44,796 bases of DNA, from positions 1 to 44,796 of the forward strand of contig WGEZ01000074.1 in assembly GCA_015492515.1 (NCBI GenBank). The letters are read 5' to 3'. Positions 11,940-15,252 of the stretch are shown piece by piece. A program made the position numbers and the translations under genes. The notes beneath the pieces are model-generated. The model was not told the origin of the DNA. It made no database searches and saw only the letters and a list, made by a program, of their open reading frames with translations. How positions within the stretch are numbered: position 1 is the stretch's first letter; each line of letters begins with the position of its first letter. The DNA is from Nitrospirota bacterium. GTDB taxonomy: Bacteria > Nitrospirota > Thermodesulfovibrionia > Thermodesulfovibrionales > JdFR-85.

Positions 11940-12944
11940 ATGAAGGCACTTGTCACAGGAGCTACAGGCTTCATCGGAAGTCACCTTGTCGAGGCCCTGC
12001 TGTCCAGGGGCTACAGTGTCAGGTGTCTCGTAAGGGCGTCATCAAACCTCAGGTGGTTGGAGTCCCTGCCCGGATCCGGATCAGCCGACGCTCCTTCCCT
12101 CGGCAGCCCCTCGGTAGAGCTCTTCCGCGGAGACTGCGAGGAGATCGAGAGCCTGAAAGAGGCGGTCAAGGGCTGTGAGTATGTGTTCCACGTGGCGGGT
12201 GTTACGAAGGCGCGGCAGAACGACGAGTTCTTCTCTGTGAACGCCGGGGGCACGGAGAACCTGATCCATACCATACTGAACAACGGGGTCGAGCTGAAGA
12301 GGTTCGTCCTCCTGAGCAGCCTCGCCGCCGTGGGGCCGAGCCTCAACGGCACGCCCGTCAACGAGGAGACGGAACCCCGCCCTGTCTCCTTCTATGGAAA
12401 GAGCAAGCTCGAGGCGGAGATGATCGTTGCAAAGGTCAAGGACAGGATACCGACAACGATCATCAGACCCCCGGCGGTCTACGGTCCGAGGGACAGGGAC
12501 CTCTATCTGTTCTTCAAGCTGATAAAATCAGGGTTCTACCCCTACTGGGGCAGGGCGTACTACTCCCTCATCTATATCGATGACCTGATAAATGGTATAA
12601 TACTCTCTGCAGAGAGTGAAGGCGCCGTAGGGAAGGTCTTCTTCATCTCCGACATGGAGGTACATACCAACGAGGAGATCGCCGCCGAGATAGCGCGGAT
12701 ATTCGAGAAGCAACCGGCAAGGGTGAGGGTGCCGAAGGGGATGATGACCCTCTTCGGTCTGGTCGGTGAGAGGCTCTTCCCGGGCGGCATAATAAACAGG
12801 GACAAGGTGCGGGAGCTCCGTCACGCCTGCTGGGTGTGCGACTCCACGCTGGTGAACAGGGAACTCGGATACAATCCTTCCGTGAGGTTGAGAGAGGGTG
12901 TGAGATGGACGGCGGACTGGTACAGGATAAACAGGTGGCTATGA
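11940..12944 (+). CDS. Extended SDR (NAD-dependent epimerase/dehydratase family), candidate 3-keto-ceramide reductase
   Basis: TGATGFIG Rossmann motif, catalytic [15 protein letters not shown]; stop overlaps the next ATG (ATGA). The specific function is inferred from context. Confidence 0.8.
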
Positions 12945-14128
12945 CCAAGGACGACCTCTTCGCAAAGTGTTTCAGGTTCAGGAAGGCGCGGGAGATAATG
13001 GAGCTCGGCCTCTACCCGTACTTCCGCGTAATCGAGAGCGCCCAGGACCCGGTGGTCTACCTCAGGGGCAGACGGATGATCATGGTGGGCTCGAACAACT
13101 ATCTGGGGCTCACCAACGACCCGCGGGTGAAGGAGGCGGCCGTCAGGGCGATCCAGCGGTACGGCACCGGCTGTGCCGGCTCGCGGTTCCTGAACGGGAC
13201 CCTCGACATACACATCCAGCTCGAAGAGAAGCTGGCCCGTTTCATGAAGAGGGAGGCCGCCCTCGTCTTCTCCACGGGGTTTCAGGTGAACCTCGGGGTG
13301 ATCTCCGCACTCGTGGGCAAGGACGACGCGGTCCTGATCGACAAGATGGACCATGCGAGCATCATCGACGGCTGCAGACTCTCCTACGGTGAGATAAAGA
13401 AGTTCCGTCACAACGACATGAACGACCTCGAGAGGGTGCTGATCAACAGCCGGGGCAAGGGGAAGCTGATCGTCGTCGACGGCGTCTTCAGCATGGAGGG
13501 CGATATCATCGACCTGCCCGAGGTGGTGAGGCTCGCCGAACAGTACGGTGCACGGGTGATGGTCGACGACGCCCACGGCATAGGCGTGCTGGGCAGCACC
13601 GGCCGGGGAACGTGCGAGCACTTCGGCCTGGAGAAGAAGGTGGATCTGATCATGGGCACCTACAGCAAGTCCCTCGCCTCGATAGGCGGCTTCGTGGCCG
13701 GTGACGAGGAGATCATCCACTACATCAAGCACTTCGCCCGTTCCCTGATATTCAGTGCGAGCCCTCCGCCGGCGTCGGTGGCCGCCGTCAGTGCGGCCCT
13801 GGACATCATCGAACAGGAACCGGAACGGATCCAGAGGCTGTGGCAGAACACCAACAGGATGTTCAACACCTTCAAGGAGCTCGGCTTCGAGGTCGGCCCC
13901 AGCCAGACCCCGATCATACCCGTGATCGTGAGGGAGGACAGCACGGCCTTCAGGATGGCCATGATGCTCCAGGAGGAGGGCGTCTTCGCCAACGTGGCGG
14001 TGAGTCCAGCGGTGCCGAACGGAAAGGCCCTCATAAGGACAAGCTACATGGCCACCCACACGGACGAGCACCTCGACATAGTGACCGAGGCGTTCAAGAA
14101 GGTGGGCAAGAGCCTCGGCCTCATCTGA
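12941..14128 (+). CDS. PLP-dependent alpha-oxoamine synthase, probable serine palmitoyltransferase
   Basis: [48 protein letters not shown] and PLP-lysine motif [13 protein letters not shown]-terminal G.YPYFR.IES resembles bacterial Spt more than BioF or Kbl. Confidence 0.82.
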
Positions 14129-14148
14129 CCCGCCCCTTCGGACCCCCT

Positions 14149-15252
14149 GTGTTGAAGATAATCGAGGTGAGAAGAGACGAGGAGATGGAGGAGTTCATCA
14201 AGCTCCCCTTCGCCCTCTACAGGGATGACCCCTTCTTCAGCCCCGAGCTCCTGAGGGACCAGAGGGAGTACTTCTCCGCATCCAACCCCTTCTTCGACCA
14301 CGCCGACGTGAGGTTCTTCATAGCCAGGAGGGATGGAGAGACAGCCGGCAGGATCGCCTCCATCGTAAACCACGACCACCTGAGGTACTGGGGTGAGAGG
14401 GCGGGCTTCTTCGGCTTCTTCGAGTCGGTGAACGATCCTGCCGCCGCAGAGGCCCTCCTGGAGAGGGTGAGGACGGAGCTCCTGCAGGCCGGGATGGCCC
14501 TCATGAGGGGGCCGATGAACTTCTCCACGAACGAGCAGTGCGGCTTCCTGATCGAGGGCTTCCAGTACCCGCCGATGCTCATGACCCCCTACAACCCGCC
14601 CTACTATCCGGAGCTGATGCAGCGGTACGGGATGGTGAAGGCGAAGGACCTCCTGGCATTCATAGCCGGGGTGCCGGAGGCCCTCCCCGGGAAGATAGAA
14701 CGCGCGGCGCTGATGGCTGAACAGAGGGGGATAAGGGTCCGCCGGCTGGAGAAGAGGAGGCTCGTTGAGGAGCTCCGGGCCTTCAAGGAGGTCTACAACG
14801 AGGCATGGGGGAGAAACTGGGGCTTCCTGCCCCTGACGGATGACGAACTCGAATACATGGGCAGGAGGCTGAAGCCCGTCATCTCACCGGAGATGACGCT
14901 CATCGCCGAGAAGGACGGCGAGCCCGTCGGCTTCCTCGGCCTCGTCCCCGACTTCAATCTCGTCCTCCGGAGGATGAAGGGGCGCCTTTCCCCAGTATCG
15001 ATCATCAAGGCCCTGTACTACAGGAGCAGGATAAGGGACCTCAGGCTCCTGCTGCTGGGCGTGAAGGCCTCCTTCAGGCGGAGGGGCGTGGATGCCCTGC
15101 TCTTCAGGGAGGGGTTCAAGGCCGTACGGGGAAGGTACGAACGGGTGGAGTTCTCCTGGATACTGGAGGACAACACACCGGTGCTGAGGCTGGTCGATAT
15201 CATCGGGGCGAGGCGGTACAAGAGGTACAGGGTGTACGAAAGACCTCTATGA
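14149..15252 (+). CDS. GNAT-fold acyltransferase, probable bacterial ceramide synthase (bCerS/YghO-like)
   Basis: FIKLPFALYRDDP, NPFFDHA, GRIA, GFFGFFES.ND, RGPMNFSTNE.CG.LIEGF, PYNPPYY, NEAW..NWGF.P, E.SWILEDN, K.YRVYE. Start is GTG 14149 or TTG 14152; the ORF-track extension to 13840 overlaps the upstream gene. Confidence 0.78.
   Translation: MLKIIEVRRDEEMEEFIKLPFALYRDDPFFSPELLRDQREYFSASNPFFDHADVRFFIARRDGETAGRIASIVNHDHLRYWGERAGFFGFFESVNDPAAAEALLERVRTELLQAGMALMRGPMNFSTNEQCGFLIEGFQYPPMLMTPYNPPYYPELMQRYGMVKAKDLLAFIAGVPEALPGKIERAALMAEQRGIRVRRLEKRRLVEELRAFKEVYNEAWGRNWGFLPLTDDELEYMGRRLKPVISPEMTLIAEKDGEPVGFLGLVPDFNLVLRRMKGRLSPVSIIKALYYRSRIRDLRLLLLGVKASFRRRGVDALLFREGFKAVRGRYERVEFSWILEDNTPVLRLVDIIGARRYKRYRVYERPL

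Follow-up and report, generated by a model that had tools for sequence, protein, structure and literature searches.

Bacterial ceramides are used as environmental lipid markers and act as stabilisers of the outer membrane, and a three-gene pathway for their synthesis is already established. In Caulobacter crescentus it consists of serine palmitoyltransferase (SPT; Spt, CCNA_01220), the ceramide synthase bCerS (CCNA_01212/CC_1154) and the reductase CerR (CCNA_01222/CC_1164). The five Caulobacter genes are listed in PMC9393093. Here we describe a cluster of three genes in contig WGEZ01000074.1 of a Nitrospirota bacterium (assembly GCA_015492515.1), a stretch of 44,796 nucleotides that we refer to as the window. 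In order, the genes encode a short-chain dehydrogenase/reductase (SDR), an alpha-oxoamine synthase (AOS) and a GNAT-type acyltransferase. We regard it as likely that they form a functional cerR-spt-bcerS operon that makes a dihydroceramide-type lipid, and the host organism would then be a ceramide producer. The window holds a clear but ordinary example of the pathway, with no new mechanism.

All three open reading frames (ORFs) are intact, co-directional on the plus strand and tightly packed between positions 11940 and 15252. The start codon of the AOS gene overlaps the stop codon of the SDR gene as ATGA (12941-12944), the two genes being translationally coupled, and 20 nt separate the AOS stop codon from the GTG at which the GNAT gene begins; the arrangement is exactly that of the original prediction, which had been drawn from the letters of the window. 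Directly observed are the homologies, the gene order and its co-occurring partners, the predicted fold and the conservation of catalytic motifs; which substrates are used, in which order the last two steps run, whether the genes are expressed and which lipid results are inferred. Following the Caulobacter model, Spt, a pyridoxal 5'-phosphate (PLP) enzyme, would join a long-chain acyl thioester to L-serine, forming 3-ketosphinganine. The tandem-GNAT bCerS would transfer a second acyl chain onto the amine, and NAD(P)H-dependent reduction of the 3-keto group by the SDR would yield dihydroceramide. N-acylation followed by reduction is the order proposed for Caulobacter, and it is disputed (PMC11087976, PMC11324152).

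Two groups of Spt are distinguished in PMC9386255, a Rhodobacteria group fed by a dedicated acyl carrier protein (ACP), AcpR, and a dedicated acyl-ACP synthetase, AasR, and a Bacteroidetes/delta-proteobacterial group. A search of the host genome for PP-binding domains placed ACPs on contigs C50, C104 and C132 only and none on the window contig, and a Pfam scan of 31 window ORFs gave no AMP-binding family. The Rhodobacteria-type five-gene system was therefore rejected as a description of this locus, as neither an ACP nor an acyl-ACP synthetase lies beside spt. Given this lack of linked acyl-activation genes and the Bacteroidota character of the enzyme described below, the acyl donor is probably acyl-CoA. 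If so, the locus would have practical value as a compact, ACP-independent three-gene cassette that is easily tested by heterologous expression.

Assignment of the three genes

The best NCBIfam model for the window AOS was NF047600 (SerpalmtaseCFB, an equivalog model for Spt of the Bacteroidota group), which matched the full-length protein with 585 bits. Other subfamily models scored lower: 450 bits for TIGR01825, a BioF/Kbl-related subfamily, 427 for NF047599, the beta-proteobacterial Spt model (cut-off 500), 425 for Kbl, 413 for BioF and 337 for NF047603 (cut-off 670), each of these five falling short of its cut-off, and 254 and 237 for the remaining two. Among sequences in the PDB the top matches were the Sphingobacterium-type SPT structures 8guh and 3a2b (457 bits), followed by a bifunctional BioF/Kbl (342 bits), Sphingomonas SPT (286-289 bits), Kbl (at most 276 bits) and the cysteate-C-fatty acyltransferases 28eh and 7u7h (259 and 243 bits). 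In the collection of plasmid records the closest relatives were enzymes of Parabacteroides (56% identity), Phocaeicola, Bacteroides and Prevotella, which together span 50-56% identity, as against 44-45% for Kbl and BioF from Firmicutes. The likeness to Bacteroidota-type Spt, which the original prediction had put forward, is borne out by these comparisons, and the two motifs of 13 and 12 residues that it quoted are both present in the AOS translation.

A maximum-likelihood tree of 32 AOS rows, built with a quick IQ-TREE run, separated two clades, each with a Shimodaira-Hasegawa approximate likelihood-ratio (SH-aLRT) value of 100. The larger, with 25 rows, holds the window AOS, the Sphingomonas SPT (near-identical to PDB 2jg2, 907 bits), the AOS of the E. 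coli cluster, the Bacteroidales enzymes and every cluster-linked AOS. The smaller, with 7 rows, holds BioF of E. coli and of Alicyclobacillus, four Kbl enzymes and the second AOS of the host genome, which passes the bioF cut-off (437 vs 426 bits); biotin synthesis in the host would thus have no need of the window enzyme. Within the larger clade, a 17-row group (SH-aLRT 95) unites the Nitrospirota enzymes with the two Bacteroidales enzymes and the N-terminal portion of a fusion protein, P0210, that is described below, and the clade of the window AOS is sister to the Bacteroidales enzymes. The PLP enzyme therefore does not cluster with BioF or Kbl, the placement that had been named beforehand as contrary to the prediction. 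In an alignment to the Sphingomonas SPT, residues H159, D231, H234, K265 (the PLP-binding lysine) and R390 are all matched in the window AOS; we take these residues, and R378, to have catalytic roles. Judged by its sequence, the window AOS is of the Spt type and of the Bacteroidota/delta-proteobacterial kind. An AOS of the Spt clade with 54% identity to the window enzyme is also encoded on a Priestia megaterium plasmid (L050, positions 4998-6212), where no GNAT or SDR gene was seen nearby and the neighbours encode an acyltransferase-family protein and a methyltransferase.

The GNAT protein aligned with E. coli YghO over residues 1-367 (33% identity, E 8e-76) and with the acyltransferase of the Sphingomonas locus over residues 2-367 (30% identity, E 6e-55), in pairwise alignments whose E-values are not comparable with the bCerS criterion of PMC11334938 (E<=1e-30 and coverage >=50%, in a much larger database). 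YghO and the Sphingomonas protein are themselves just 39% identical. The dihydroceramide-synthesis gene aca is equated in PMC9386255 with CC_1154, yghO (ECD_02850), Swit_3908 and DRN02_007910, and the SPTs of E. coli B and S. wittichii are reported there to be active; PMC11324152 identifies CC_1154 (CCNA_01212) as bCerS, with Swit_3908 as its orthologue at 45% identity. The GNAT protein and the SDR are accordingly homologous along their whole length to genes that published work identifies with bCerS and CerR of Caulobacter (PMC9386255), and to this extent the roles originally proposed for them hold.

General resources said little about the GNAT protein. No NCBIfam model matched it, a sequence search of the PDB returned no meaningful relative and no solved bCerS, and in the protein Atlas it fell only into generic 'N-acetyltransferase' clusters. 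Pfam gave a weak match to Acetyltransf_1 (30.5 bits, residues 213-348); the corresponding matches for the SDR and AOS were Epimerase (118 bits) and Aminotran_1_2 (211 bits). The family is large, its representative clusters numbering 8247 at E<=0.001 and still 1452 at the stricter E<=1e-30, and the gene is present as a single copy in the host genome. AlphaFold2, given an alignment of 57 rows, produced a model with a predicted local distance difference test (pLDDT) score of 95.1 and a predicted template modelling (pTM) score of 0.91, and Foldseek placed tandem-GNAT proteins on top: MAB_4324 (7q3a, TMq 0.63), a glucosamine N-acetyltransferase, the clavulanate tandem GNAT and the mycothiol synthase MshD. 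The protein is thus predicted, with a confident model, to have the tandem-GNAT fold. Columns conserved in the family include NWGF and SWILEDN, and both motifs are also found in YghO and in the Sphingomonas protein.

Further evidence came from relatives of the GNAT protein and their neighbours. Two proteins of about 780 residues, P0136 and P0210, are natural fusions of an Spt-like AOS domain with a bCerS-type tandem GNAT, which provides a Rosetta-stone link between the two enzymes. A tblastn search of plasmid records found full-length GNAT matches, at 29-40% identity, in 46 records. The Sphingomonas parapaucimobilis match sits in a classic sphingolipid locus, with genes for an NAD(P)H-binding protein, an ACP, SPT, lptF/lptG paralogues, a desaturase and an N-acetyltransferase. 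The E. coli match is yghO itself, and its neighbours encode a fatty acyl-AMP ligase, an epimerase-family protein, an ACP, an AOS and lptF/lptG paralogues. The Roseomonas match lies between LptF/G-family genes and a nucleotidyltransferase gene, Streptomyces and Rubrobacter have AOS-GNAT-SDR triplets, and in Aureispira all three genes are present, the SDR gene in divergent orientation.

Two side observations concern this family. Two bCerS-family GNATs, P0154 and P0223, carry an N-terminal PilZ domain, which hints that ceramide synthesis might be under cyclic di-GMP control in some bacteria. On a Roseomonas gilardii plasmid (L004, positions 10086-11243), and generally in several Roseomonas records, the bCerS homologue is labelled 'dATP pyrophosphohydrolase'; this is probably a propagated misannotation, because the neighbours are of the sphingolipid type (LptF/G paralogues, a sterol desaturase, a nucleotidyltransferase and an acylglycerol kinase).

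The SDR carries the dinucleotide-binding motif GATGFIG and the catalytic motif YGKSK, which align with the SDRs of Sphingomonas, E. coli and Streptomyces over about 296-330 residues. In BLASTP comparisons over the full or nearly full length, identity to these sphingolipid-locus SDRs was 29% for Sphingomonas (8e-37), 36% for Streptomyces (5e-54) and 27% for E. coli (4e-33); no NCBIfam model reached its cut-off. When the same three proteins were used to query the host genome, the window SDR was the best match for two, scoring 73.8 bits with E. coli epi and 151 bits with the Streptomyces cluster SDR, as against 62.5 bits in both searches for a second SDR on contig C8, whose gene adjoins fumarate hydratase genes. 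We assign the window SDR as a candidate CerR because of its full-length homology, its translational coupling to spt and the conserved linkage of the three genes. This identity leans largely on gene context, and the specificity of the assignment is weaker than for the AOS and the GNAT protein.

Conservation within Nitrospirota and beyond

We sampled 201 Nitrospirota genomes, scoring GNAT at E<=1e-20 and Spt-type AOS at E<=1e-120 and comparing the resulting tables by hand. GNAT was found in 89 genomes and Spt-type AOS in 85. Both were present in 83, leaving six with GNAT only (G034, G047, G127, G131, G159 and G186, three of them 77-89% complete) and two with AOS only (G061 and G185, 75% and 85% complete); since kin genomes are not independent, these counts are a description of co-occurrence and not a statistical test. 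Among the other sampled genomes of the window's own order, 39 of 41 have both genes. In loci of the Thermodesulfovibrionales type, identity to the window proteins is 46-61% for the SDR, 70-85% for the AOS and 48-64% for the GNAT protein.

Gene order was compared within 6 kb on either side of the GNAT gene in 20 Nitrospirota loci. SDR, AOS and GNAT genes are colinear in 14, the GNAT gene stands alone in four, and two are rearranged and of a different type. For three of the four solitary GNAT genes a whole-genome search recovered an unlinked Spt orthologue with 68-76% identity, and the fourth (G002) scored 68% in the AOS survey of the 201 genomes. A wider set consisted of the best 80 of 575 confirmed GNAT relatives, collected with a 14-row alignment, with AOS and SDR genes again counted within 6 kb. 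An AOS gene lies near the GNAT gene in 60 of these 80 loci, accompanied by an SDR gene in 45 and without one in 15; three have an SDR gene only, and 17, several of them on short contigs, have neither. The recurrence of the SDR-AOS-GNAT order (14/20 loci) and of all three genes within 6 kb (45/80 loci) shows that the arrangement is not due to chance. Titles of the best 80 relatives name about 20 phylum-level groups, including Nitrospirota (with a metagenome-assembled genome (MAG) of Thermodesulfovibrio yellowstonii), Zixibacteria, Acidobacteriota, Gemmatimonadota, Myxococcota (with the cultured Myxococcus dinghuensis), Bacteroidota, Elusimicrobiota, Planctomycetota, Verrucomicrobiota, Spirochaetota, Chloroflexota and Actinomycetota.

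From this distribution we lean slightly towards the view that ceramide synthesis is a core, mostly vertically inherited trait in large parts of Nitrospirota, near-universal in the Thermodesulfovibrionales-like order of the window and frequent in another large family, whose relatives bear the names Nitrospira or Nitrospiraceae. If this is true, some environmental ceramides would come from thermophilic sulfate reducers and related bacteria that have so far gone unrecognised as producers. An intact Spt-bCerS-CerR operon conserved across a Nitrospirota order helps in assigning ceramides from hot, anoxic and subsurface settings to their sources.

How new this is for the lineage depends on earlier reports. 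The original prediction held that ceramides would be noteworthy in a lineage with no reported sphingolipids. This stands insofar as a literature search, with most subscription journals outside its reach, found no paper measuring a sphingolipid in a cultured Nitrospirota. It does not stand as regards genetic potential, which PMC10667739 already ascribes to Thermodesulfovibrio with reference to Stankeviciute 2022 and Sohlenkamp & Geiger 2016; the same paper tentatively attributes monoglycosyl ceramides in part to Thermodesulfovibrionia. PMC11334938 describes Spt-like genes in MAGs of 38 phyla, with the three genes often clustered; the string 'Nitrospir' is absent from its main text, and the phyla are listed in its supplement, which may include Nitrospirota. 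PMC10411912 was considered as a source for a Nitrospirota Spt and set aside, its matches being to Nitrospirillum.

Several individual genomes depart from the common pattern. In family f24, the AOS and SDR of G159 (L044) group with the E. coli/Sphingomonas branch and not with other Nitrospirota, and the AOS matches of G186 (L043, L063 and L065) are distant, at 40-42% identity; these more distant, proteobacterial-type enzymes suggest a separate acquisition. G114 has two GNAT copies in the same orientation (C73:21180-22280 and 23174-24274), separated by about 0.9 kb and each 58% identical to the window protein. GNAT or AOS copies with in-frame stop codons occur in G131 (C1:67239-68341, TGA only) and G200 (C1:60541-62871, TGA and TAA), and may be pseudogenes or assembly errors.

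Doubts and alternative readings

A number of observations weigh against assigning the cluster to ceramide synthesis. The AOS misses the curated cut-off of NF047600 (585 vs 640 bits), and the residue aligned to R378 of the S. paucimobilis SPT is Val. The AOS tree covered Spt-, BioF- and Kbl-type enzymes, and HemA, CqsA and cysteate acyltransferases were judged by hidden Markov model and PDB scores. The amino-acid specificity of the AOS is not readable from its sequence, and this is the main residual doubt. The GNAT protein is tied to bCerS in two steps, through YghO and the Sphingomonas protein. For the SDR, the query from the Sphingomonas locus favoured the C8 protein over the window protein (92.2 vs 88.8 bits), although the former match covers residues 3-236 only, and a 28-row tree did not separate the window SDR from the C8 SDR.

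The failure to reach the NF047600 cut-off was put in perspective by calibration. Of the enzymes tested, only two from Bacteroidales pass the model (684 and 700 bits), and the AOSs of other clusters all fail, each with a score below that of the window enzyme: 516 for Myxococcus dinghuensis, 487 for Aureispira, 444 for Rubrobacter and 377 for Streptomyces. The model is therefore taxonomically narrow.

The alternative that survives best is that the cluster makes a related lipid from an amino acid other than serine. The AOS would condense cysteate, leading to capnine and a sulfonolipid, or alanine or glycine, leading to 1-deoxy-type bases, and N-acylation and reduction would follow. It draws on the sub-threshold Spt score and the Val at the R378 position, on the fact that cysteate-C-fatty acyltransferases still match the enzyme, and on the wording of PMC11334938, which terms such enzymes only 'Spt-like' and speaks of '(1-deoxy)Cer' backbones. 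Nevertheless, the SPT structures score some 200 bits above the cysteate enzymes, the nearest named relatives, from Bacteroidales, themselves clear the cut-off of the Spt equivalog model, and the GNAT partner belongs to the YghO/bCerS family, which in E. coli B and Sphingomonas occurs together with biochemically demonstrated SPTs (PMC9386255). We consider this alternative improbable.

It could also be argued that the genes are true ceramide-pathway homologues that are silent or give trace amounts, so that sphingolipid is no significant component of the membrane; no lipid measurement for any Nitrospirota came up in the literature search. Intact ORFs, the sequence conservation in Thermodesulfovibrionales-type loci and the joint presence of AOS and GNAT in nearly all other sampled genomes of the window's order form a pattern expected under selection, however, and we think this second alternative very unlikely. 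To the third, in which the AOS is a BioF of biotin synthesis or a Kbl of threonine catabolism and the SDR and GNAT genes are unrelated housekeeping neighbours, we give almost no credence, as the data contradict it: bioF and Kbl models and Firmicutes enzymes do match the AOS, yet these models score below both their cut-offs and the Spt model, the tree splits it from BioF and Kbl, the host has a separate BioF above cut-off, no tdh or bio genes are adjacent, and the three-gene association is kept across many phyla.

Surroundings of the cluster and comparison with known systems

Features of the locus are collected in Table 1. The host genome comprises 2.19 Mb in 148 contigs, of which the window is contig C74, and the closest GNAT homologues bear the names Nitrospirae, Nitrospirota, Thermodesulfovibrionales or Nitrospira, which makes the host an uncultured member of Nitrospirota, of the Thermodesulfovibrionales type. 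Among sequencing runs listed as containing the sequence none is RNA, and the single DNA run (X1) may be the source of the assembly. The cluster is flanked by housekeeping genes, with lon, thiL, a DUF2062 gene and htpX upstream and a response regulator gene and uvrA downstream. An alternative TTG start of the GNAT gene at 14152 would give the 366-residue form that is the database protein P0001. A consensus scan of positions 11600-17900 returned four promoter-like sites, against 1.1 expected from shuffled sequence; the one preceding the cluster is a possible promoter of the operon, a consensus match being no evidence of function.

Table 1. Positions of the cluster genes and of neighbouring features in the window
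Feature	Position	Strand	Length	Description
SDR gene	11940-12944	+	334 aa	Extended SDR, NAD-dependent epimerase/dehydratase family; CerR-like ketoreductase candidate
AOS gene	12941-14128	+	395 aa	ATG start 12941, TGA stop 14126-14128; predicted Spt of Bacteroidota/delta-proteobacterial type
GNAT gene	14149-15252	+	367 aa	GTG start 14149; bCerS/YghO-family ceramide synthase candidate
Promoter-like site	11855-11884	+		TTGACT-18 nt-CAAAAT, from consensus scan; in 81-nt gap between htpX and SDR gene
KAS-II paralogue gene	15247-16437	-	396 aa	Convergent; 3' end overlaps GNAT gene by 6 bp; neighbour of the cluster
Cys-rich ORF	16434-16928	-	164 aa	Overlaps start of KAS gene as GTGA

The beta-ketoacyl-ACP synthase (KAS) II paralogue that converges on the GNAT gene scores 383 bits with the fabF model, below the cut-off of 494, and the true fabF of the genome is on contig C50 (682 bits). 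Its Cys-His-His triad appears intact, from FabF motifs judged by eye. The same convergent KAS gene follows the cluster in 4/20 Nitrospirota loci and 5/80 multi-phylum loci; of these nine, eight have names or group codes of the Nitrospirota type, and one (L074) is labelled 'uncultured bacterium'. The recurrent paralogue might supply a lineage-specific acyl chain, or its position may be mere inherited synteny. The Cys-rich ORF beyond it could be placed in neither a Pfam nor an NCBIfam family, and tblastn against the 20 Nitrospirota loci gave nothing at E<=1e-10. Elsewhere in the genome, at C104:420-4062, an ACP gene precedes two tandem KAS paralogues (fabF 427 and 349 bits); this is a separate, putative locus of the fatty-acid or polyketide type.

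Set beside described systems, the window cluster shares with Caulobacter an AOS, a GNAT-type N-acyltransferase of about 370 residues and an extended SDR, the link running through YghO and the Sphingomonas orthologues (PMC9386255, PMC11324152, PMC9393093). It differs in three respects. Caulobacter requires AcpR and AasR, whereas the window contig has no ACP; Caulobacter bcerS lies about eight genes from spt, beside LptF2/LptG2, whereas here the three genes form one compact unit; and the two Spt enzymes fall into different subgroups. The cluster of E. coli B/BL21 (aasR, epi, acpR, spt, yghO and lptF/lptG paralogues) likewise offers YghO and epi as full-length or nearly full-length counterparts of the window GNAT and SDR. 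Unlike the window, it is of the Rhodobacteria type, with an ACP and a fatty acyl-AMP ligase, and its AOS, with 600 bits, clears the cut-off of the beta-proteobacterial Spt model and falls on the Sphingomonas branch of the tree.

In the sulfonolipid (capnine) pathway of Bacteroidota, a homologous AOS, cysteate-C-fatty acyltransferase, also condenses fatty acyl thioesters with an amino acid (PMC9304779). Against that enzyme the window AOS reaches 243-259 bits, as compared with 457 against SPT. The nearest counterparts of the window AOS are the Spt enzymes of Sphingobacterium multivorum and Bacteroidales (3A2B, 8GUH, NF047600), which provide its top structures and model, show 51-56% identity in the case of Bacteroidales and, like the window, have no linked ACP. 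The window AOS differs from them in its sub-threshold score, and a further difference lies in gene order: spt adjoins neither bcerS nor cerR in the two Bacteroidales loci examined, in keeping with what PMC11334938 describes for Bacteroidota in general, whereas in the window all three genes are adjacent.

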